Below, in pieces: positions 6,765 to 64,000 of a stretch of DNA of 64,000 nucleotides. The notes beneath the pieces are model-generated. The model was not told where the DNA came from. It saw only the letters and a program-made list of their open reading frames with translations, and did not search any database. A program made the translations under genes and the position numbers. The number at the start of each line of letters is the position of its first letter. The first letter of the stretch is position 1. Source of the stretch: an uncultured delta proteobacterium (lineage in GTDB: Bacteria > Desulfobacterota > Desulfomonilia > Desulfomonilales > Desulfomonilaceae). The stretch lies in assembly GCA_963789265.1 (NCBI GenBank), contig CAWBKB010000005.1, positions 704,001-768,000 on the forward strand, written 5' to 3'.

Positions 6765-7499
6765 TTGAGAGAACAGCTACCGCTTCTTGAAAAGCTCCAG
6801 CAGATCGACGGCGAGATAGAGCAACACGAAAATGACCTAGCCAGATTGCCCGTAGAGGTTCAGGACATAGCCAGGAACCTCGTAGTTATTCGCCGGGAGA
6901 ATTCGGAAGCGCGCGAGAGGCTAGCTTCGCTCGAAAAGGATGTGCGGAAAAAAGAGCAGGATCTAGCTGTGGAACAGGAAAAGATCAAACGTTCCGAGCG
7001 GCGTCTACTCAACATAAAAAATCAAAAAGAATACAATGCGTTATCCAGAGAAGTCAAACTCGGCAAGAAGGTTGTGGGCGAAATAGAAGATGGGATATTG
7101 GGATTTATGACTGAGATGGAAACAATCAAGAAGACCGTTGACAGAAAAGACAAGGAATACGCAGCACTTGAGAAAAGTTTGTTGGAGAAGAAGCAAGAAA
7201 TGGAGGCTATTTCTGCACGGGCAAGAACGGCCCTTGTTTCCCTGAGGACTGAGAAACAGAGAATCTCCGAATCGGTAGACCGTGATTTCTTGAAGAGATA
7301 TGAGACGGTCAAGAAAGCTCGAAGGAACGCGGTGGTGGAGTTGCGGAACGGATCGTGCACCGGCTGTCACATCGCCATACCACCCCAGCTTAACATCCGG
7401 ATTCTGAAGCAGGAAGAGTTGGTATTGTGTCCCAATTGCCATAGAATTCTCTATGTAAAGCCCGAAAATATTCCCGAATACAATAGAATTGATTCATAA
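6765..7499 (+). CDS. Coiled-coil protein with C4-type zinc ribbon (DUF164 type)
   Basis: Long coiled coil, KEYNAL motif, C-terminal CTGC...CPNCHRIL; usual neighbour of Nif3. Confidence 0.9.
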   Translation: MREQLPLLEKLQQIDGEIEQHENDLARLPVEVQDIARNLVVIRRENSEARERLASLEKDVRKKEQDLAVEQEKIKRSERRLLNIKNQKEYNALSREVKLGKKVVGEIEDGILGFMTEMETIKKTVDRKDKEYAALEKSLLEKKQEMEAISARARTALVSLRTEKQRISESVDRDFLKRYETVKKARRNAVVELRNGSCTGCHIAIPPQLNIRILKQEELVLCPNCHRILYVKPENIPEYNRIDS

Positions 7500-11918: not shown

Positions 11919-11956
11919 GCATAAAAGAGCCGGCCAAGCCGCCGGCTCTTTTATGC
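11919..11956. terminator. Bidirectional-type intrinsic terminator
   Basis: GCATAAAAGAGCCGGC-6 nt-GCCGGCTCTTTTATGC. Confidence 0.7.
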
Positions 11957-12031
11957 TATAACGCTTTGATCAACTAAGAGAAATAGGTCCTTCAGGAGCG
12001 GAATTTGGGCAGCCTTTCGGCAGCTTTAGGT

Positions 12032-12217
12032 TCACGCAGCAACATCGTCCTCTATTGGCCAACGCCCCTGATTTAGCCACCGTACCAGAGAGGCGTCTAT
12101 TGCGTCTTCAAAGACATCGCATCGGGCCGCTATTTCCTTAAACGTAAGACCCTGCTTCAGCATATTGTGAATATTTTCGGGAGTCATCCGAACCCTGGCG
12201 CCTTCCATCTTCAGCAT
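12032..12217 (-). CDS. Small hypothetical protein, HTH-like
   Basis: RBS AAGGGG; GLTFKEIAARCDV resembles a helix-turn-helix; terminator downstream. Confidence 0.55.
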   Translation of the reverse strand: MLKMEGARVRMTPENIHNMLKQGLTFKEIAARCDVFEDAIDASLVRWLNQGRWPIEDDVAA

Positions 12218-12620
12218 AAGTCACCCCTTTTAAACGCACTGGTATATATGTTCTCTGCCAATGCTGAAGGTTCCCCATTTTTTAAAAAAAAATGGGACCG
12301 GTCATCAACTCTGCTCCCGGGAGAGATGAACCGCTTTGCTTGCAACACCTAACAGAATTCTATCAGTATACAATCAGGTACAGAAAGAAGTCAAGAAATT
12401 AGGTAGTGGTAGGCATATCTTTGTTGATCTCTATTCTTCCCGTGAAGATTTGAGCAAGAATCGCGCATCGGAATGTTCCCCACTTGATAGCGAGACCCTG
12501 GATAATAGACATCGGTCGTGCAAAGCGTCGGCGACAACCGCGGTGGGCAGAGCGTAAATGCCGGCGGCATTTACGCTCTTAATTCCACGAGGCTCATAAG
12601 GCCGGTCCGATCTCATCCTC

Positions 12621-57156: not shown

Positions 57157-57825
57157 ATGAGCAAGTTAATTAAAGATAATCTCTGGCAAGTGGGGGGCAG
57201 CGAGCTGACTGGTCCCGGGGATGCCGCTATCTATCTCGTGCGCTTTGGCGACAAAGCCGCGCTTATTGATGCCGGTTGCGGGCAGGATCATGCCCGATTG
57301 AGAAAAAATATTGCAGAATGCCTGCCGCGGGATGTGCAACTCGAATATCTTCTGCTGACCCACTGTCACTTCGATCACACCGGAGGGGCCGAAGCAGTGA
57401 GAAACGAATTCGGCTGCCGTATCGTGGCCCATGAGCTGGACGCGGTCTACCTCGAATCCGGTGACAGTGAAGTGACCGCAGCATCCTGGTATGGCTCTAA
57501 GTTCAAACCGTTGACAATTGACCTCAAACTTCACGGCGCGGAGTCTACCCTCGGAGTCGGCAGTGGTACGATTACGGCTATACACTGGCCTGGTCACTCC
57601 CCGGGCTCAATGGTGTATACTACTCACATTGACGACGAACTCGTGCTCTTCGGGCAAGACGTCCACGGTCCGATTCACCCGGCCCTGTTATCTGATGAGA
57701 GGCAGTATCAGGCTTCTTTGGCCAAGCTCTTGGCCCTGGACGCGGATCTTCTCCTGGAAGGGCATTTCGGCATATTTCGGACAAAGGAAAAGGTCAGAGA
57801 ATTCATCCAGTCTTTTATGAAATAG
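57157..57825 (+). CDS. Metallo-beta-lactamase fold hydrolase
   Basis: LIDAG, THCHFDH, PGHSPG, GQD, EGH motifs. Confidence 0.92.
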   Translation: MSKLIKDNLWQVGGSELTGPGDAAIYLVRFGDKAALIDAGCGQDHARLRKNIAECLPRDVQLEYLLLTHCHFDHTGGAEAVRNEFGCRIVAHELDAVYLESGDSEVTAASWYGSKFKPLTIDLKLHGAESTLGVGSGTITAIHWPGHSPGSMVYTTHIDDELVLFGQDVHGPIHPALLSDERQYQASLAKLLALDADLLLEGHFGIFRTKEKVREFIQSFMK

Positions 57826-57914
57826 AGGATTGTCCAAGAGACAGCCAGGTGGCTCCAACAGGAACGAGCCTCAACCTGGAGTGAAGAACCAGGAATGAAC
57901 AAAACGACCAATAG

Positions 57915-58071
57915 TTCACCGCGGAGATCGCCGAGAACGCGGAGACCAGACACGGCAAATTTCGGTTTTTGACAGCAAAAGAAATACCGACCCGACTGTA
58001 CGCACCGATAACTCATACGGAAATGAATGAGCAATTACCCTCTCTGCGATCTCAGCGCACTCCGCGGTGAA
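57915..58071. repeat. Short element bounded by 31-nt imperfect inverted repeats
   Basis: TTCACCGCGGAGATCGCCGAGAACGCGGAGA ... TCTCTGCGATCTCAGCGCACTCCGCGGTGAA. Confidence 0.7.
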
Positions 58072-58101
58072 TCTCCCATTGTCCGTTGAAGGGTCACAAA
58101 A

Positions 58102-58906
58102 ATGATTCAACTTAAAAATGCCATGGAAATCTTCAAGATACTGCCAAGAACCAATTGCCGGGACTGCCGCGTTCCAACGTGCCTGGCCTTTGCCGCCGCG
58201 GTGTTCAAGGATGATAAACGCCTGACCGATTGCCCTCATTTAGACGGAACCGTTTCTGGAGGTGCTCAGCGTTCAGAACTCCGATTCCAGGACGTTGGAA
58301 CGTGAAGAGAAGCAAATGCTCGCACAGTTGAGAGGAAAAGTCGGGAGCCTGGATCTCGCTTCTTCCACGGATAGGTTGCAAGGCGCGTTTTCTGGCCTAA
58401 CACTGACGGTGAAGATGCTCGGAAAGGACTTCCATGTCGATTCCCAGGGGAACATCACGTCTGACAGCCACGTGCACGGATGGGTCACAGTACCGCTCCT
58501 CAACTATGTAATATCTTGCGTGGGCCTGCCCGTGTCAGGAAACTGGGTTCCCATGCGTGAACTCAAGAACGGCGCCATCTGGGCCCCGCTTTTCGGGCAG
58601 CGCTGTGAAAAGCCATTAAAGCAGGTGGCGGACACTCATACGGATCTGTTTGAGTTCATGGTTCAGGTCTTTAGCGCAAAACCTGCACCCAATGCTTTTG
58701 ATTCAGACATTGCGGTGGTTTTGCACCCCCTGCCCAGAGTGCCCATGCTTATATGTTACTGGAAGCCGGACGGCAGCATCGAATCATCGCTAAACGTCTT
58801 CTTCGACGACAGTGCTGAAGAGAACCTGGGCGCTGATTCACTCTACAGGATTGCCACCGGCATGGTGATGATGTTTGAGAAGATCGCGATCACGCATGGG
58901 AAATGA
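58102..58906 (+). CDS. Fe-S cluster domain plus DUF3786-like protein; one insertion at ~58254
   Basis: LPRTNCRDCRVPTCLAFA...CPHL N-terminus; WVPMREL, PLPRVP, FFD motifs in the second frame. Confidence 0.8.
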
Positions 58907-59349
58907 GGCACGGCCCTAGAAAGCTGCTGCGCAAGCTTGTCACCAGCGGGACCCTCCCGAATTCGTCGCGCCATGGTGCCTGGTGTGTCGACATATCTGA
59001 GAGGCTGCAAAGCAAAACGGCTTAGCAGGTCATACTGTTATAAGCCTGGGGCGCAATAGAGCAGAGGACGGACTTTCAGCGCAGCACTTCAAGTAGCGTA
59101 TGAGAGTGTTTAGATGTTGCCGCCTCCCACAGAAAGTAAGACGCGAAGGGGCCGAAGCTTCGGTACAAAAGGGGTCTATCTTGTGCTGCGCACACGCCCG
59201 TAAAGGGGAAATCCTTGATGATAGGAGGAATGGCTCTCAAACGGCGGCCTCTATTGACCATAATTTCGTGTTGCCGAAACAGCTTGACAAGCCCGACGAC
59301 CTAGATTAACAGGTCGCGTGGGAGAATGCGCTCTTCGGCGGAGGGAGGT

Positions 59350-60801
59350 ATGGGGTTTCTGCTGCCAGAATGGGAGATGGAATGGATCCTTGTCAACAAT
59401 CCCGCCCTTTTAGATCCTGGATCTGAAATTCTTAACCTCGAAGTAGTTGCCCAACAGTACGATTTGCCCCGGAGCGGAGGGTATGTGGACATCCTGTGCC
59501 GTTTCCCAGAGGGCTTGTTGGCAGTGGAACTGAAGAATGAATTTGTCGACGATTCCTCTGTTATCACACACCAGCTCAACAAGTATCTCGCGGACCTGTT
59601 GCACTACTCCAATAATTCCGAAGAAGTGAGATGTTTACTTGTCTCCACTCACGGGTTTTCACGACAGGTACAAGAGCTGGCCACTGCTCGTTCAGTGAGG
59701 TTGCAGACCATCTCTGTCGAGAACTTGCTCGAACAGGCCTGGCGTCTGAATACATCTGCGGATACTCTGTCGTCGGCAAAGGCGCGGCTTTTGCAGCGGC
59801 GTGTTGGATTGAAAACTTTGGACAAGGCCAAGGAACTCGTCTGCGGAAGACCTGATGCACGGTATCAACGGGATGTGGCCAGCATCGATCACTTCATAAG
59901 TTCCGGCAAGCACGACGCGTACGGATTGCGGCAGCTCGCTCGCGGTTTGAAGGAAGTGAGTCGTCGAGCCCCCATCATGGCACACAAAGTGTTCGATGAA
60001 GACGACGGAAATACCCTTAGTGGGGAGGAAGAAAAGTGGTTTTGGTTCTTCTATAGCGTGCTTGATAGACGAGCGAACGCTGCAACCTTCGTTAAGGCGA
60101 AAGAGGCACTTGAACGATGTAGACTTTTCCTGCCCCAAGAGCTCGTCCGGCTCGTGGAAACTACTTCGAATGCGGATGCAGTGGACCGCGTCTTTAGAAT
60201 TTTGCGAGATAGTGAGTTTCCTCTTGCCGCTGATTCTATCAGGCGCGACCAAGCCATGCCTTCGAGCATTGTGGATGCAGCTATGTATTTGAGCCGATTC
60301 GAGTTTTCGATGGACAATATGTTAGAATATTTTACTCAGGCCCTTTCCAGGTCCGAAGACTTAGCCGACACAATCATGGCACACTTGAGGAAGCACGTTT
60401 ATGGCGTAGGTCCGAGGATTGCGGCGCAGATCGTCCGAGGCTTGTGCCTCAAATCGGGCTGGAAGGTGACCATGTCTTCCCCGGTTCATCTGGAACAGTG
60501 CGGGTTTAACGAAACTTTCGCCGGCCCCGGCCGGTTAGGTCTCGTGTCCTCGCCGCAGAGTTACCGGAGGGAGCTGAAGCGTTTTGCGGACTCGTATCTC
60601 GGAGGGAACTGCGGTGTAATTAGCCATGCGCTCTGGTTCATCCGGAAGAGATTTTGTCTTCGGCCGAAGCGCTGTGATGAGTGCCCCGTGGCTGGCTTCT
60701 GCAATTATACTCGTTCTATGCTGCTGCGAAGCTACGACCGTAAGATGCTTGGCGCCCAACCCTCGTTGTTTTCGCGTATGGAGGAGGCCGTTCCAACCTG
60801 A
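59350..60801 (+). CDS. NucS/RecB-like PD-(D/E)xK nuclease fused to an HhH/[4Fe-4S] glycosylase-like domain
   Basis: E..NP..L, G.VDIL, AVELK, QLNKY motifs; YGVGPRIA hairpin; C-x5-C-x2-C-x5-C; RBS GGAGG 5 nt before ATG 59350. Confidence 0.8.
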   Translation: MGFLLPEWEMEWILVNNPALLDPGSEILNLEVVAQQYDLPRSGGYVDILCRFPEGLLAVELKNEFVDDSSVITHQLNKYLADLLHYSNNSEEVRCLLVSTHGFSRQVQELATARSVRLQTISVENLLEQAWRLNTSADTLSSAKARLLQRRVGLKTLDKAKELVCGRPDARYQRDVASIDHFISSGKHDAYGLRQLARGLKEVSRRAPIMAHKVFDEDDGNTLSGEEEKWFWFFYSVLDRRANAATFVKAKEALERCRLFLPQELVRLVETTSNADAVDRVFRILRDSEFPLAADSIRRDQAMPSSIVDAAMYLSRFEFSMDNMLEYFTQALSRSEDLADTIMAHLRKHVYGVGPRIAAQIVRGLCLKSGWKVTMSSPVHLEQCGFNETFAGPGRLGLVSSPQSYRRELKRFADSYLGGNCGVISHALWFIRKRFCLRPKRCDECPVAGFCNYTRSMLLRSYDRKMLGAQPSLFSRMEEAVPT

Positions 60802-62441
60802 TGGTCAAAAGAAGTCATCTAGACCGGGTACGAATTCTTGTCTTGTCAGACCTCCACTACGCAACTGACACTGGCAAATGGGAGGAAGTCTTTGCCACGG
60901 AGGGGACAAGGGAAACCGCTGCATACTCCTTCACCAACATTGAGCGCCTTCTCGGATTCATACTCAATGTGGTGAAAAGGGAATTGGACCACGTTATCAT
61001 ATTGGGAGATCTAACGCTTTTAGGCTCCCGAGACGACTTCAAGTTAGCCAAGGAGGACCTCCTCCGGTTTCAGGAGGAGCTCAAGAATGAAGGGATTACC
61101 ATAAACGCAGCCGAGGGAGAATTGGATCCCGCGATGTTCACTATCATCCCTGGCAACCACGATTTGAATGAGCCTACCGTCGGCAAGTGGACGCGCCGGC
61201 GGAGGATGGTAACTGGAGGTATGAGATCATTAATCAGCCGCGTCACGAAAAAGCCGATTGTGGCACCTCCGTCCAGCCCCGAAAAGATGTCGGAACTACT
61301 ACAGCTTTTCCGCGAATATTTTGGTGAAACCCTCTGGGATCGAAACCAGGAATCCAAGCAGTTTGGGAGTCTTGAGAAGATATTGCGCCATACTAACGTG
61401 TCACTCGTCCCATTAAATAGTTGTGTTCCGGCGCCAGTGCATCTTTTAGGAATAAACGCTCGTGGCCGAATAGATCAAGATCAAAGAGTGAAATATACAG
61501 AGTTGGGGCGCAATGGAAATGGCTCACGGCTCCGTATCGCTCTTGCCCATCATTTTCCACTTCCTATTCCGGTAAAACGCGATTCATTAACGGAGCCATC
61601 CCTGGAACTTGAAGATGCCAGTGACGTCATCCACTCTTTATACGGAGGTGCAAAATTCGCTGCTTTTTTGTGCGGACACAAGCACTCGGATTTCATTTGG
61701 TGCAACATCGCAGGAGTGCCGAAGGTAGACCGCTGTATGCCAATAATCTGTGTCGGTACGACTACCTTTCAGGCACCTCACCGAGATCACATTTGCTGCC
61801 TGATCGAATTGGAAGGTCGCAACAAGCTCAAGTTCAGCGATGAAAACACTTTGATCAAGGTCCACCATTATGAGTCCAGGAAACTTGCTGCCTCCCTCGT
61901 GAATACATTCGAGTTCTCGCCTGAGCCGGGCACACATAAAGAATTCACTAGTCTGACGGCCAGATGGATCAGAGAGGTGGAGAAAGCACCCGGGAGTAAG
62001 ATAAAACTCATAGACTTCAGATCTGAAGAATCCTGGAAGTTACTCAAGCCACTGCATCAAGAAACTGAGGCTGCAAGGCTGGAATTCAGTCGCTGGGGGA
62101 CTGTCTTCTACGGAGACACTCAAGGAGCGATTGAGGATTTTGAAATATTAGTAGGTGGCGAGTATCGTAAGGGTCCAATTTGCCTCATTTTCTCATGTAG
62201 GGCGCGGGATGGAGAGCCTGAACTAAAGATAAGCTGCAAAGAAAGTTCTAATCCAATGACTGATTTTGAATCGGTGTCACAAAACGAGTTTAGAAAAAAC
62301 TTCTTTCTGAATTATATTTCCCCGGATACCAAGCTACTGGTTTCTTTTAGATCAAGTCGTCTTGCCGAGGTGGTGCTCCATTGTGTCCTTGTTCTTGAAT
62401 TTCCCATAGTACGGTCGGAGACAGCCTATGACAATGCCTGA
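60801..62441 (+). CDS. Calcineurin-like metallophosphoesterase with an unknown C-terminal region
   Basis: SDLH, LGDLT, PGNHD, AHH, GHKH (complete metal-ligand set); TGATG overlap with the upstream gene. Confidence 0.88.
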   Translation: MVKRSHLDRVRILVLSDLHYATDTGKWEEVFATEGTRETAAYSFTNIERLLGFILNVVKRELDHVIILGDLTLLGSRDDFKLAKEDLLRFQEELKNEGITINAAEGELDPAMFTIIPGNHDLNEPTVGKWTRRRRMVTGGMRSLISRVTKKPIVAPPSSPEKMSELLQLFREYFGETLWDRNQESKQFGSLEKILRHTNVSLVPLNSCVPAPVHLLGINARGRIDQDQRVKYTELGRNGNGSRLRIALAHHFPLPIPVKRDSLTEPSLELEDASDVIHSLYGGAKFAAFLCGHKHSDFIWCNIAGVPKVDRCMPIICVGTTTFQAPHRDHICCLIELEGRNKLKFSDENTLIKVHHYESRKLAASLVNTFEFSPEPGTHKEFTSLTARWIREVEKAPGSKIKLIDFRSEESWKLLKPLHQETEAARLEFSRWGTVFYGDTQGAIEDFEILVGGEYRKGPICLIFSCRARDGEPELKISCKESSNPMTDFESVSQNEFRKNFFLNYISPDTKLLVSFRSSRLAEVVLHCVLVLEFPIVRSETAYDNA

Positions 62442-63483
62442 ACAGCCAGTTTATGCACCTGAGGAAGGTTTAGCGCCATTTGCGGGAAACACGATTACCG
62501 AAGTCTATAACACGCTCAAGAGATTTTTTGAAAATAAGAAAGATGCTACGGTATTGCACGTTCTCACCCTCGTCCGGTCTCCAGAATATCTTGTCCCGGA
62601 TGAACAGGTTATTTCTGCTCAAGAGGTTAAGGACGCCGTGCGCGGCCTCACTGATCAACCAGAACGAGAACAGTTCAAATTCAATCACTGGGATAGGATT
62701 TCGAGCTTTGGAAGACCTTTTTACAAAGTTGATCAGTTTGAAAACGCGGGAAAAGCTCTCTGCGAAGAATTAGAGAATAGGGAAGCAAGGACGTCGGCGA
62801 GTGCAGCGTTTGTAGTGACCGACCCTCTAAAAGACCTTGCCTCTAGGGATAGTGACACGCCGCCTCCATTTTTTTGCATGGGTCAATTTTGGCTAGACCA
62901 CCTAGGTCGGCTGGGGATAACGGGCGTTTATAGGCGGCAGGAGATGTCTTCATGGTGGGTTGTAAATATCTGGGAACTCGCCACTTACAGGGACAGGATG
63001 TGTGAGTACCTGAAGAGCTGTGGCTTCCAGGTCAGGGAGGGATCTGTGGCTACTCTGGCCGTTTTGGCTTACTGGCGAAGCAAGAAAAAATCTCCGGTTC
63101 CACTTCCCGATTTTGACAGACCCGAATTACGCGGCCAGATAGGGTCTTCATTGCTAGCGACCTTCGATGGTGACAGTGCGGCCGCCGGATCGTTGGAAAA
63201 GATGCTTCGGGAAAAGGCCAAAACGATAACAAAAAGCAATGCTCCGAGAGGTGGCCTCAAAACCTTGTTGGATCTTCTGTCTGCGGTCGAGTCGTATTTC
63301 AAGATGAAAAATGAGGAAATCTTTTATGAGCTGTTCCGTCAAGTGAAGGAAGCGGATCAGTATCATTCGCAATTCTCGCAGCCAGTCTTTCGAGCCATAA
63401 CAGTGGATAGCCTTGCCCAGTGTTACGAGAAACTAGCTGATACGTTCGAGACCCTCAAAGGAAAACTTGAGCAACAGCAATGA
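62428..63483 (+). CDS. Divergent thymidylate-synthase-fold protein
   Basis: HWDRI..., VDQFE...EEL, PPPFFCMGQF...L....VYRRQEM..WWVVNIWEL follow the order and spacing of ThyA core motifs; RBS GGAG, 14-nt overlap. Confidence 0.6.
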   Translation: MTMPEQPVYAPEEGLAPFAGNTITEVYNTLKRFFENKKDATVLHVLTLVRSPEYLVPDEQVISAQEVKDAVRGLTDQPEREQFKFNHWDRISSFGRPFYKVDQFENAGKALCEELENREARTSASAAFVVTDPLKDLASRDSDTPPPFFCMGQFWLDHLGRLGITGVYRRQEMSSWWVVNIWELATYRDRMCEYLKSCGFQVREGSVATLAVLAYWRSKKKSPVPLPDFDRPELRGQIGSSLLATFDGDSAAAGSLEKMLREKAKTITKSNAPRGGLKTLLDLLSAVESYFKMKNEEIFYELFRQVKEADQYHSQFSQPVFRAITVDSLAQCYEKLADTFETLKGKLEQQQ

Positions 63484-63520
63484 ACGTGAACAATATTGTA
63501 GAATGGTCATGGGAGGAAAA

Positions 63521-64000
63521 ATGGAAAAAACAACCATGCCCTTCGCGCGTGAACTGAAATTGGAGCTCACAAATGCGTGCGGCTTGGCCTGCGCCCATTG
63601 CTCGACAGATTCCGGTTCCACTGCATCTCTTTGCATTCCTACGGCTGATGCAATTCGAATAGTGTGCCAGTTTCGGGAGCTAGGTGGTGAGCGGCTCATT
63701 TTGACCGGTGGTGAGCCGCTTCAACATCCCGAGATTGATCTCATTGCTGCTTTTTCAAAGCAAATAGGTCTTCAAGTCGTGGTATATACGACCGGACTTG
63801 ATATCAATTCGGACGTATCCAGGGACAGACTGCTACACCTGGCCCCAATCATAGATGGATTTGTCTTCTGCCTACATGCCGCTGTACCTGATGTGCACGA
63901 CCACCTTACAGGGGTGCGTGGCAGTTTTGAAGCTACTGTTTCCGCCATCAGCCTTGTAATGAGATGGGGTAAGCCCGTCTGCATTCATCACGTACCACTT
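63521..64000 (+). CDS. Radical SAM protein (PqqE/NirJ-like), truncated by the window end
   Basis: Own translation: MEKTTMPFARELKLELTNACGLACAHCSTDSG...LTGGEPLQHP...YTTG...HDHLTGVRGSF; CxxxCxxC; RBS GGAGG; open to position 64000. Confidence 0.93.
   Translation, partial: MEKTTMPFARELKLELTNACGLACAHCSTDSGSTASLCIPTADAIRIVCQFRELGGERLILTGGEPLQHPEIDLIAAFSKQIGLQVVVYTTGLDINSDVSRDRLLHLAPIIDGFVFCLHAAVPDVHDHLTGVRGSFEATVSAISLVMRWGKPVCIHHVPL

Follow-up and report, generated by a model that had tools for sequence, protein, structure and literature searches.

A rare fusion of a NucS-type nuclease and an endonuclease III-type domain, linked to a radical SAM gene, in an uncultured bacterium of the Desulfomonilaceae

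An operon of four overlapping genes

The window (the whole stretch of DNA that was analyzed, 64,000 nucleotides from an uncultured member of the Desulfomonilaceae) carries near its end an operon whose first gene encodes a nuclease fused to an HhH-GPD domain, followed by genes for a metallophosphoesterase, a thymidylate synthase (TS)-like protein and a radical SAM enzyme. The four genes overlap start to stop, and the operon is predicted to be translationally coupled. Genes and features are as follows:

59350..60801, plus strand: NucS-HhH fusion gene (ORF list, database gene call, 41 homologs, AF2 model)
59350..59733, plus strand: NucS-type PD-(D/E)xK domain, residues 1-128 (structure match, motif mapping, conservation)
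59488-59490, 59527-59529 and 59533-59535, plus strand: catalytic codons of the nuclease domain for D47, E60 and K62
59734..59910, plus strand: helical linker, residues 129-187, with DSSP helices at 137-152, 157-165 and 173-185
59911..60726, plus strand: EndoIII-type HhH-GPD domain with FeS-cluster loop, residues 188-459 (VIA, hhalign, HMMER)
60397-60423, plus strand: HhH hairpin VYGVGPRIA, from the translation (YGVGPRIA at 60400..60423)
60415-60417, plus strand: R356 at the Nth lyase-Lys position (alignment to GVGDKIA / GAGEKTA of relatives)
60493..60510, plus strand: EQCGFN, with E382, F386 at the canonical catalytic-Asp position, and N387 (alignment to STDVHVLRVFKRLGL of P0092)
60655..60702, plus strand: four-Cys loop CLRPKRCDECPVAGFC, with C436, C442, C445 and C451 spaced C-x5-C-x2-C-x5-C
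60801..62441, plus strand: calcineurin-like metallophosphoesterase, 546 aa, its start sharing 1 nt with the fusion-gene stop
62428..63483, plus strand: thymidylate-synthase-superfamily-like protein, 351 aa (tentative)
63467..64000, plus strand: radical SAM enzyme with C-terminal auxiliary Cys-rich domain, 381 aa, running past the window end to 64612

The ORF list begins the fusion gene at an in-frame ATG farther upstream (59326..60801, plus strand, 491 aa). Both the database gene call and the N-termini of 41 homologs place its start at M9 of that frame, position 59350, for a protein of 483 aa; residues are numbered here on the 483-aa form.

The metallophosphoesterase matches Pfam Metallophos (E = 2e-7) and, far below the cut-off, the NCBIfam anti-phage phosphoesterase DS9_1 (E = 5.9e-18), and a homolog occupies the same position in locus L028 (27% identity, E = 5e-29). 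Assignment of the next protein to the thymidylate synthase superfamily is weak. TIGR03283 was recovered below its cut-off (E = 1.2e-5), the ESM Atlas related the protein (0.92) to a cluster with PF00303 on 30% of its members, and a Foldseek search with a low-confidence AF2 model (pLDDT 58.8, from an alignment of three sequences) returned weak matches to CMP/dCMP hydroxymethylases, dCMP hydroxylase and ThyA (best E = 4.7e-3). A PF00303 search did not detect the protein, the L028 homolog lacks the putative nucleophile Cys of this protein, and no relatives of it were found in viral contigs. The radical SAM enzyme is recognized by Pfam Radical_SAM (E = 5.4e-11 / 1.1e-10) and has CX3CX2C and C-terminal Cys motifs. 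Its best NCBIfam matches are SPASM/twitch families, all far below cut-off, and a PADLOC match to pVip (E = 2.2e-10) spans only the generic N-terminal 90 residues of the in-window fragment. Farther downstream, an ORF at 64874-65368 (8874-9368 in L001) looks noncoding and has no family. The window's own flanks hold housekeeping genes and no defense genes, and the GC content of the operon is 0.502 against 0.524, only at the 8.5th percentile.

A NucS-type nuclease joined to an EndoIII-type domain

As modeled by AF2 (pLDDT 90.3), the fusion protein is confirmed to have three parts: a NucS-type PD-(D/E)xK nuclease, a helical linker, and a complete EndoIII-type HhH-GPD domain with a four-Cys loop. 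The linker is a gapped region of the homolog alignment and is shorter in archaeal homologs of 410-433 aa. Identity within the family ranges from 31 to 62% among 39 proteins; because of this conservation, together with the superposition on EndoIII described below, the fusion signal is more than chance. The family is also rare, with 111 HMMER hits among 1.84 billion protein representatives and seven loci in a scan of one genome per species (185,579 species). None of 40 relatives carries the gene (0/40), and no relatives of the protein were found in viral contigs. Searches of the PDB gave no match with the whole protein sequence or the N-domain alone and only chance matches with the profile of the whole protein, while Pfam and PADLOC returned only EndIII_4Fe-2S (E = 0.095, below threshold) and PDC-S41 (E = 0.022). 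A 933-aa protein from another assembly (P0043, 99% identical) joins the nuclease and the phosphoesterase in frame; since a second frame change lies close to its end, it is a probable indel artefact, and we do not treat it as a Rosetta-stone fusion.

Model residues 6-124 superpose on residues 126-233 of the NucS chain 2vld_B (VIA Z 15.7, rmsd 1.8 Å, 107 residues), and Foldseek matches the nuclease domain to EndoMS 5gke (E = 4.3e-4). An N-domain profile also has 2vld as its best, though weak, PDB match (E = 0.08) and aligns the nuclease set to E127, D160, E174, K176, Q187 and Y191 of Pyrococcus abyssi NucS. Residues E7, E9, E11, D47, E60, K62, Q75 and Y79 are each kept in 39/39 aligned homologs. 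The preliminary description had reported an intact E...D...ExK...QxxxY set and suggested superposition on NucS and Nth as a check; both the set and the NucS-like fold are borne out. Library scores are lower: the NCBIfam NucS model (NF003270) reaches E = 6.9e-7 with 28.6 bits, far below its equivalog cut-off of 216, and NucS_C (PF01939) is precomputed on 6 of the 41 homologs. What the protein shares with NucS/EndoMS is thus the fold of their C-terminal catalytic domain and its E, D, ExK, Q and Y residues. The domain is N-terminal here and C-terminal in NucS/EndoMS, whose mismatch-recognizing N-terminal DNA-binding/dimerization domain is absent; NucS matches are confined to chain residues 126-233, and the fusion protein begins six residues ahead of the nuclease domain.

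For the C-terminal part, 207 of the 211 residues of Escherichia coli EndoIII (2abk) superpose on model residues 188-459 (VIA Z 13.0), so that the Nth comparison also upholds the earlier assignment. Alignment of the domain to an EndoIII-like family by hhalign gives a probability of 94% (E = 1.1e-7), and HMMER connects the fusion family to the PF00730 proteins P0092 and P0153. Pfam finds no PF00730 hit on the fusion protein at E values up to 1, a whole-genome PF00730 search recovers two other genes and not this one, and hhalign against the genome's Nth-like protein L059 gives a probability of 0.2%. The Cys loop has the pattern of a putative [4Fe-4S]-type loop of the EndoIII kind: C436 is present in 36/39 homologs (the first Cys is missing in three) and the other three Cys in 39/39. 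The x5-x2-x5 spacing noted in the preliminary description is correct, but the contrast it drew with Nth/MutY is not distinctive, as the genome also encodes an ordinary EndoIII-like protein, L060, that shares the x5 spacing.

The residues of canonical excision have been replaced. In the hairpin VYGVGPRIA, found where it had been described, Arg356 lies opposite the Lys of GVG-x-K in three relatives (P0092, P0153 and P0085), the first two with PF00730 and the last with an EndoIII-like C-terminal part of canonical type, to which Pfam gives no score; Arg holds this position in 39/39 homologs. The canonical Asp motif D-x-H-V-x-R-V-x-x-R-L-G of P0092 aligns by HMMER, ungapped, to F386, a position occupied by Phe in 32, Tyr in 6 and Leu in 1 of the 39 proteins and never by Asp. 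An hhalign register against the L060-type family, which sets the Asp opposite a loop with a 12-residue gap, was rejected in favor of the ungapped HMMER register with its R-x-G-L anchor. Both losses had been noted earlier, an Arg for the lyase Lys and no catalytic Asp, and both extend to the whole family. Near the expected pocket, E382, N387 and D239-R240-R241 are invariant in 39/39 homologs and are kept in 10/10 members of other subfamilies as well; as invariant polar residues beside the lost Asp, E382 and N387 could support catalysis. Like EndoIII and MutY, the domain has the whole fold, the HhH hairpin and a C-terminal Cys loop; unlike them, it has Arg for Lys, Phe or Tyr for Asp, about 65 extra inserted residues, and a fused nuclease. 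Because Lys is replaced by Arg and Asp by Phe, Tyr or Leu in 39/39 homologs, a base reader is, as far as sequence comparison can tell, more likely than a canonical glycosylase.

Radical SAM genes beside the fusion gene

A radical SAM/SPASM gene lies at most 2.8 kb away in 15/15 NucS-type loci with at least 3 kb of sequence on both sides, and in 25/27 of those where 3 kb or more is available on one side; owing to near-duplicate contigs, the independent cases are fewer than those counted. This linkage, the strongest contextual fact, had escaped the preliminary description. Together with the place of the fusion gene at the head of its operon, the presence of the linkage in 15/15 loci speaks against a type IV enzyme that simply acts on its own.

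Radical SAM homologs with a SPASM domain adjoin the fusion gene in other loci, amid variable company. L028 has the same gene order as the window plus a deoxynucleoside kinase. Archaeal loci have as partner a dUTPase/dCTP-deaminase-like protein (DCD-like, PF22769), which carries a C-terminal membrane helix and is presumably without the Glu of the deaminases. Further partners are a MazG-like protein and a deoxynucleoside kinase. These variable partners are best explained as proteins that all handle pyrimidine deoxynucleotides. By hhalign, the archaeal accessory proteins (U213, U125 and the MazG-like c6) have no homology to the metallophosphoesterase, TS-like protein, radical SAM enzyme or downstream ORFs of the window, and only the radical SAM enzyme and the fusion protein are common to both operon types. 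A subfamily with a different N-domain and the same reader signature stands alone, with radical SAM genes in 0/8 loci. ThsB-TIR and SLATT genes adjoin the fusion gene in seven loci, and integrases do so in four.

Relatives of the radical SAM enzyme, with up to 44% identity, occur on four viral contigs. On one of them (L093) the gene lies among DNA methylases, a HAD hydrolase, DUF4406, an RNA ligase and a kinase-HD protein. A literature search that left most subscription journals outside its scope found no published description of a NucS / HhH-GPD / radical SAM cluster. The linkage points to a DNA-mark-based immune or modification system that would not have been described before.

Possible functions and relation to known systems

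Phage T4 hypermodifies its pyrimidines with a dCTPase, a dCMP hydroxymethylase and a kinase. In thymidine hypermodification, as far as it is described in PMC8989533, an HhH glycosylase-like aGPT-Pplase acts alongside a radical SAM enzyme. The enzyme classes of these phage pathways (dNTP hydrolase, TS-like protein, kinase, radical SAM enzyme and HhH glycosylase-like protein) recur around the fusion gene. The fusion cluster differs in lying in cellular genomes, in joining its HhH protein to an intact nuclease and, by the same account of the thymidine pathway, in that its linked radical SAM enzyme is SPASM-type rather than SPL-like. Since its only Pfam match is the weak one to EndIII_4Fe-2S, the fusion protein has no match to any library model of aGPT-Pplase.

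The nearest known parallel is END-Mag, described in a preprint (PMC12191111) as a NucS-like PD-DExK nuclease with an inactive EndoIII/Ogg domain that restricts modified-G phages. It resembles the fusion protein in having a nuclease of the NucS-like class and a domain that derives from HhH glycosylases but has lost their catalytic residues; a reader-plus-cutter logic would also be common to both. Going by that description, the two are set apart by the reader, which in the fusion protein is EndoIII-type with a four-Cys loop, whereas the END-Mag sensor is reported to be closest to archaeal Ogg enzymes and the main text on END-Mag contains neither "iron" nor "Fe-S" (PMC12191111). END nucleases are also described there as single-gene systems, whereas the NucS-type fusion subfamily always lies beside a radical SAM gene (15/15 loci); the subfamily with the alternative N-domain resembles them in standing alone (0/8). 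No PLD-nuclease fusion occurs among the 25 Pfam-scanned proteins of the 111 HMMER hits. Compared by description, the fusion family thus appears distinct from the END nucleases in its FeS-loop EndoIII reader and its rarity. A second parallel is the defense pair Brig3-BapA, an active glycosylase with a hydrolase helper that acts on DNA (preprint 10.64898/2026.02.25.707755). Here too an operon pairs a base-recognizing DNA enzyme with an enzyme whose action on a modified base makes the substrate; by the abstract of that work the folds are unrelated to those of the fusion protein, and the helper is neither a radical SAM nor a nucleotide enzyme.

We tentatively propose, with confidence somewhat short of even, that a base reader gates the DNA endonuclease activity of the fusion protein, which would work in modification-dependent restriction with a linked writer or processing module. 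The NucS-type domain, with all catalytic residues present, would cut DNA. The EndoIII fold would take the place of the mismatch-sensing domain of NucS at the opposite end of the chain, most likely binding DNA through the HhH hairpin and the Cys loop, and a base flipped into the strictly conserved pocket (DRR, E382, F386-N387 and H426) would be reported rather than excised. Within a conserved module whose constant partner is a radical SAM/SPASM enzyme, the protein would be the nuclease arm and may recognize a pyrimidine modification that depends on radical SAM chemistry. Such a mark would be native to some phages and be installed or processed by the linked module, and marked DNA would be cleaved, giving END-nuclease-type modification-dependent restriction with a writer or processing module attached. 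The folds, motifs, residue replacements, conservation, linkage and phage radical SAM homologs are observed; that the domain reads a base instead of excising it, what the mark is and which DNA state sets off cutting are inferred. The accessory, defense-like context (0/40 relatives; defense genes and integrases nearby) speaks for the gated endonuclease, and END-Mag, so far as its preprint describes it, is a precedent that partly supports the reader-licensed, type IV-like cleavage suggested in the preliminary description. Counting against a gated endonuclease are the weak TS-like assignment, the unexplained DCD-like partner, the lack of viral relatives of the fusion protein among the contigs searched, the housekeeping flanks and the GC content. 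A linked writer usually protects self, as in R-M, Dnd and Dpd. Were the nuclease to cut what its own operon makes, it would harm its host, unless it is under regulation or only invader DNA receives the mark. In favor counts the stand-alone subfamily with the same reader signature: a nuclease that has no linked partners can be tolerated only where self DNA is free of its target.

The polarity could be reversed, as in classical R-M. The radical SAM module would then mark self DNA, directly or via the dNTP pool, and the fusion protein would cut unmarked DNA, its pocket admitting the normal base and shutting out the modified one. Obligate linkage (15/15) with translational coupling is what writer/nuclease pairs have, the place of the radical SAM family among phage DNA-modification genes fits a protective mark, and binding of a normal base in an HhH-GPD pocket is known from MutY and MIG. 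We nevertheless consider this unlikely, if a serious competitor: the stand-alone subfamily, with an identical reader signature, would be lethal unless its writer is unlinked, the nucleotide-level partners imply bulk base replacement, of which we know no example in cellular genomes, and the experimental precedent for the fusion architecture, as described in PMC12191111, is modification-dependent. A different use of the same nucleotide-level enzymes would be to make a signal. On infection, the radical SAM and nucleotide enzymes would produce a base-modified free nucleotide that binds the HhH-like domain and turns the nuclease on. All partner enzymes do work at the nucleotide level, the queuine salvage enzyme DUF2419 has the HhH-GPD fold and binds a free nucleotide (Z 11.2), and base-modified nucleotide signaling in defense has been reported, on the evidence of one preprint (10.1101/2024.12.20.629578). 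The DUF2419 match is, however, no better than those to DNA glycosylases, the DNA-binding HhH hairpin and Cys loop are kept and conserved, and the stand-alone subfamily has no synthase nearby, which leaves such an effector very improbable.

Both parent families are repair enzymes, and the fusion protein might be one as well, a disabled EndoIII fold that finds a damaged pyrimidine and lets the NucS domain nick or cut next to the lesion. A repair operon of anaerobes would be completed by the radical SAM enzyme (compare spore photoproduct lyase) and pool-sanitizing enzymes. House-cleaning is the classical role of dUTPase-like and MazG-like proteins, housekeeping genes flank the window locus, and SPL provides a precedent for radical SAM DNA repair in the account of PMC8989533. 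Such a role is improbable given the very sparse distribution (7 loci in 185,579 species, 0/40 relatives, 111 hits in 1.84 billion), the defense genes and integrases that neighbor several loci, and the loss of the canonical excision residues. That loss weighs differently if the HhH domain is an active, noncanonical monofunctional glycosylase in which the invariant E382 or D239 serves as general base and the NucS domain goes on to process the abasic site or the opposite strand. The invariance of E382, N387, D239, R240 and R241 (39/39, and 10/10 members of other subfamilies) would fit such an activity, and defense glycosylases of the HhH superfamily have been described (10.1101/2025.10.29.685425; Brig3), as far as those sources go. 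Every member has a hydrophobic residue at the canonical Asp position, though, and in the alignment E382 lies four residues upstream of it, in a loop. P0085, a close relative in which NucS_C is fused to an EndoIII of canonical type, retains K as well as D; fusion is therefore possible with the canonical residues, and the fusion family has lost them. We consider such noncanonical glycosylase activity a slim prospect.

Returning to the reader-gated endonuclease, we can speculate about immunity in which the radical SAM/SPASM enzyme and its dNTP partners make a modified pyrimidine deoxynucleotide that enters replicating DNA, where a disabled [4Fe-4S] EndoIII domain reads it and directs a NucS-type nuclease, either to destroy marked invader DNA (mark and cut) or to spare marked self DNA. 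We hold this rather doubtful; if true, it would with either option be the first cellular self/non-self system to use a radical-SAM-written DNA base, and the phage radical SAM family would be a new DNA hypermodification enzyme. A disabled glycosylase fold joined to a nuclease as a reader of modified bases has been described only lately; here it would come from the FeS-containing EndoIII branch, tied to a conserved radical SAM and pyrimidine-nucleotide module that phages also carry. Should the link not be functional, the locus would be a clean, rare case of an archaeal END-like nuclease transferred horizontally into a bacterium. If it is functional, the locus would open a testable route to an as yet undescribed DNA or nucleotide modification produced by SPASM-type radical SAM chemistry; it would reveal a new cellular means of marking or recognizing DNA, and it might yield a tool enzyme with cleavage directed to one particular modified base.

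The fusion protein and its two domains

Four genes with overlapping stops and starts form an operon headed by the fusion gene:

59326..60801, plus strand: open reading frame of the fusion gene (ORF list)
60801..62441, plus strand: calcineurin-like metallophosphoesterase, second gene of the operon
62428..63483, plus strand: thymidylate synthase (TS)-like protein, third gene of the operon
63467 to 64612, past the window end, plus strand: radical SAM enzyme, fourth gene of the operon

The public gene call and the N termini of homologues place the start at the second ATG (59350), giving the 483-aa form used here for residue numbering. Searches with the fusion protein returned only the EndoIII iron-sulfur motif in Pfam (E = 0.095) and NucS in NCBIfam, far below its cut-off (E = 6.9e-7); PADLOC gave nothing useful, and PDB sequence searches gave no match. 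A word-indexed search recovered homologues in 41 clusters, mostly of 410 to 536 aa (one of 319 aa), 33 to 63% identical and nearly all metagenomic, of which 39 were aligned. In the AlphaFold2 model built on this alignment (pLDDT 90.3, pTM 0.86), residues 6 to 124 superpose on the catalytic C-terminal domain of NucS/EndoMS (Foldseek, then VIA-align; best NucS match 2vld_B, Z = 15.7, rmsd 1.8 Å over 107 residues) and residues 188 to 459 on E. coli endonuclease III in its entirety (2abk; Z = 13.0, 207 of 211 residues), with Deinococcus EndoIII, MutY/MUTYH, OGG1, AlkA and MagIII ranking next. On this predicted model both domains are real, and the sequence profile results agree with the structural matches: profile-profile comparison with an ordinary EndoIII-like family of the same genome and its phylum gave a probability of 94% (E = 1.1e-7), and in an exhaustive HMMER search against 1.84 billion representatives the C-terminal part matched the Pfam HhH-GPD proteins P0092 (E = 2.5e-7) and P0153 (E = 9.8e-4).

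By alignment the NucS-type active site is intact, as the preliminary description had held: E7, E9, E11, D47, E60, K62, Q75 and Y79 each occur in 39 of 39 sequences, and an N-domain profile pairs the nuclease residues with E127, D160, E174, K176, Q187 and Y191 of P. abyssi NucS, its top PDB match (weak, E = 0.08, but full-length). Translation likewise bears out the HhH hairpin VYGVGPRIA and the four-Cys loop (CLRPKRCDECPVAGFC), the first Cys of which is absent in 3 of 39 members; the x5-x2-x5 spacing of this loop, set against x6-x2-x5 of Nth/MutY in the preliminary description, is not distinctive, because the genome's own EndoIII-like protein L060 shares it. In ungapped HMMER alignments GVG-P-R stands opposite GVG-D/E-K of three proteins with canonical-type EndoIII domains (P0085, P0092, P0153), which puts Arg356 at the lyase-Lys position, and F-N-E-T-F-A-G-P-G-R-L-G stands opposite D-x-H/N-V-x-R-V/I-x-x-R-L-G of canonical-type relatives, which puts Phe386 at that of the catalytic Asp. 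Arg356 is invariant across the family, and of the 39 sequences 32 have F at position 386, six have Y and one has L, confirming the earlier observation that Arg replaces the Lys and that the Asp is missing. Since D239-R240-R241, Y351, E382 (four residues upstream of F386), N387, H426, W429 and R432 are all invariant, conservation argues that the EndoIII-like domain is no degenerate relic; as modeled, its EndoIII fold is complete and its DNA-binding elements are conserved, but the canonical Lys and Asp are absent. In P0085, a close relative in which NucS_C is joined to EndoIII, K, D and the x6 spacing of the Cys loop are retained, so the fusion type already existed when the fusion-protein family lost its catalytic residues. 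In L059 (1441-2040; genome G000, contig C3, ~574 kb), the canonical Nth-like gene of the genome, K and D are in place; the ORF, which stops at 199 aa ahead of any Cys loop, may carry a frameshift or encode a short form lacking FeS. About 2 kb away there is a weak thymidylate-synthase-like match (PF00303, E = 6.8e-5).

Distribution and genomic setting

The fusion protein is rare. The exhaustive search returned 111 proteins at E ≤ 1e-3 and only 33 at E ≤ 1e-30, most of the weak matches having the NucS-like domain alone, joined to modules of other kinds, among them a helicase-associated domain, a STAND NTPase and Nmad3 (25 of the 111 Pfam-scanned). A pattern scan of one genome per species across 185,579 species, which may leave out records of the window's own genome, found seven loci, which record titles assign to archaea in six cases (Bathyarchaeota, Methanoperedens, Sifarchaeum) and to an "uncultured archaeon" in one. 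The window's genome (6.06 Mb) has bacterial features such as LolA, and at E ≤ 1e-5 the gene was found in none of 40 relatives, of which 6 share the genus, 18 the family and 16 the class. Operon GC (0.502 versus 0.524 for the genome) lies at the 8.5th percentile and so deviates only mildly. The fusion gene is probably accessory and transferred from archaea.

The ~420 bp 5' of the gene contain no notable ORF, and a consensus scan of them found no sigma-70-like promoter. Farther upstream (57157-58906) lie a metallo-beta-lactamase-fold protein (Lactamase_B, E = 6.3e-22) and a DUF3786 protein (E = 2.9e-46), neither with a counterpart in related loci and both probably unrelated to the nuclease system. 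In another assembly, P0043, from the same 90% cluster as the window's protein, is a 933-aa product of 99% identity with the nuclease and phosphoesterase genes in one frame and a second frame change close to its end; this probably reflects an indel in that assembly.

Radical SAM linkage and partner genes

Besides the window's own locus we gathered 7 genomic and 50 metagenomic loci, 58 in all, and clustered all neighboring ORFs; 40 of the loci encode a NucS-type protein. The linkage to radical SAM and predicted pyrimidine-nucleotide enzymes is obligate: a homologue of the window's radical SAM gene lies within 2.8 kb in all 15 NucS-type loci with at least 3 kb on both sides and in 25 of 27 with at least 3 kb on one side, independent cases being fewer than these counts because some contigs are near-identical (e.g., L025/L026 and L039/L040). 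The linked proteins carry a SPASM or twitch-type auxiliary domain and score far below the cut-offs of every named family.

The variable partners are all predicted to handle pyrimidine deoxynucleotides. The window and locus L028 share the metallophosphoesterase and the TS-like protein, an assignment resting on three weak lines: TIGR03283 (E = 1.2e-5), ESM Atlas (0.92), and Foldseek matches of a low-confidence model to CMP and dCMP hydroxymethylases, dCMP hydroxylase and ThyA. PF00303 does not detect the window's protein, and its putative nucleophile Cys is absent in the L028 homologue. L028, the sole other locus with the window's gene order, encodes a deoxynucleoside kinase 3' of its radical SAM gene (11929-12549; PF01712, E = 2.7e-17) that has no counterpart in the window, where a nonconserved 164-aa ORF and a class I methyltransferase follow. 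Most archaeal loci instead encode a dCTP deaminase (DCD)/dUTPase-fold protein (PF22769, 27 loci) with a C-terminal hydrophobic helix, together with a ~213-aa protein (PPDK_N/ATP-grasp-like lead) and a ~125-aa protein, or a ~104-aa MazG-like lead. The DCD-like partners (e.g., L004 6158-6946 and L002 7657-8646) have a variable helical N-extension, a coiled-coil before the hydrophobic helix and a motif that, by eye, is nearer dUTPase motif III than the deaminase active site, features that suggest a membrane-anchored nucleotide enzyme.

Among the archaeal loci, the module adjoins ThsB-TIR and SLATT genes in 7, ~4 of them independent, and an integrase in 4. The recurring trio comprises a ThsB-type TIR protein, a SLATT/DUF4231 membrane protein and an unassigned protein of 213 to 284 aa, with a zinc-ribbon-like C terminus in the single member scanned (L006). 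It looks like a separate Thoeris-like defense set, present also in the near-duplicates L026, L040 and L057:

L006 13679-15930: ThsB/SLATT trio, archaeal contig
L025 1459-3278: trio, archaeal contig
L027 5709-6980: trio, archaeal contig
L039 1012-2770: trio, archaeal contig

By alignment, the same reader domain occurs in stand-alone nucleases, and phage DNA-modification regions encode members of the linked radical SAM family. Other forms of the reader keep the invariant residues in 10 of 10 sequences; they include a ~440-aa subfamily with a different N-terminal domain bearing a D...ExK-like motif (by eye; Pfam Hjc at 0.077 in one of four members scanned) and a ~300-aa form without nuclease. None of eight alternative-domain loci has radical SAM or any conserved neighbor. 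Radical SAM relatives, up to 44% identical to one linked to the fusion gene, occur on four viral contigs: one among three DNA methyltransferases, a HAD hydrolase, DUF4406, an RNA ligase and a kinase-HD protein, another beside SSB, and another near a DpnII restriction-modification pair. A DCD-like relative on a viral contig adjoins a UDG-like gene; the fusion protein was not found on viral contigs. On viral contig L094 the radical SAM gene overlaps at its end with a protein of no known family (6924-7496), whose matches in two nuclease-system loci (L038 3502-5019, E = 9e-16; L056 153-1571, E = 6e-13) make it a second component shared by the phage and cellular versions.

Proposed mode of action and precedents

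The EndoIII-like domain would flip and inspect a base whose state could be tied to radical SAM chemistry, and the linked module may install or process a mark in the invader's DNA as it replicates, or its target may be the nucleotide pool of the invader. We tentatively favor modification-dependent cutting, because pockets derived from glycosylases are naturally selective for aberrant bases, modification dependence is what the experimental precedent shows, and a stand-alone nuclease with the same pocket is tolerable only if its target is absent from self DNA. That stand-alone subfamily does not fit the main rival, a reverse polarity in which the linked writer protects self DNA; the tight operon would suit such a writer, and we rate this arrangement as rather unlikely. 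Lesion repair seems improbable, an active glycosylase of non-canonical type slightly more so, and an effector activated by a nucleotide signal very improbable.

Modification-dependent cutting by this architecture has direct precedent, as did the modified-base reader preferred in the preliminary description. END nucleases are described, in the text covered, as nucleases in which a fused, catalytically inactive EndoIII/Ogg domain serves as the sensor of hypermodified bases, and the metagenomic END-Mag, a NucS-like PD-DExK version, restricted phages with modified guanine (PMC12191111). Compared by description only, the END-Mag sensor is said to resemble archaeal Ogg enzymes, whereas ours is EndoIII with a Cys loop; the main text of PMC12191111 contains neither "iron" nor "Fe-S." END nucleases are also presented there as single-gene systems, in contrast to the radical SAM-linked fusion protein. 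The earlier interpretation is partly supported. Among related systems are HhH-superfamily defense glycosylases (10.1101/2025.10.29.685425), phage thymidine hypermodification by a TS-like hydroxymethylase, kinases, an HhH glycosylase-like transferase and radical SAM (PMC8989533), and Ophion, a non-viperin radical SAM defense system (10.1101/2025.09.30.679545). In the Brig3-BapA pair, a base-modifying enzyme reportedly creates the glycosylase's substrate. We found no description of a NucS-HhH/radical SAM gene cluster in the literature searched. Compared by description, the fusion protein represents a new, putatively FeS-bearing form of the recently described END-type reader-nuclease architecture. 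Its novel feature is the conserved association with a SPASM-type radical SAM enzyme and deoxypyrimidine enzymes, a coupling that is testable and could reveal a hitherto unknown DNA or nucleotide modification.
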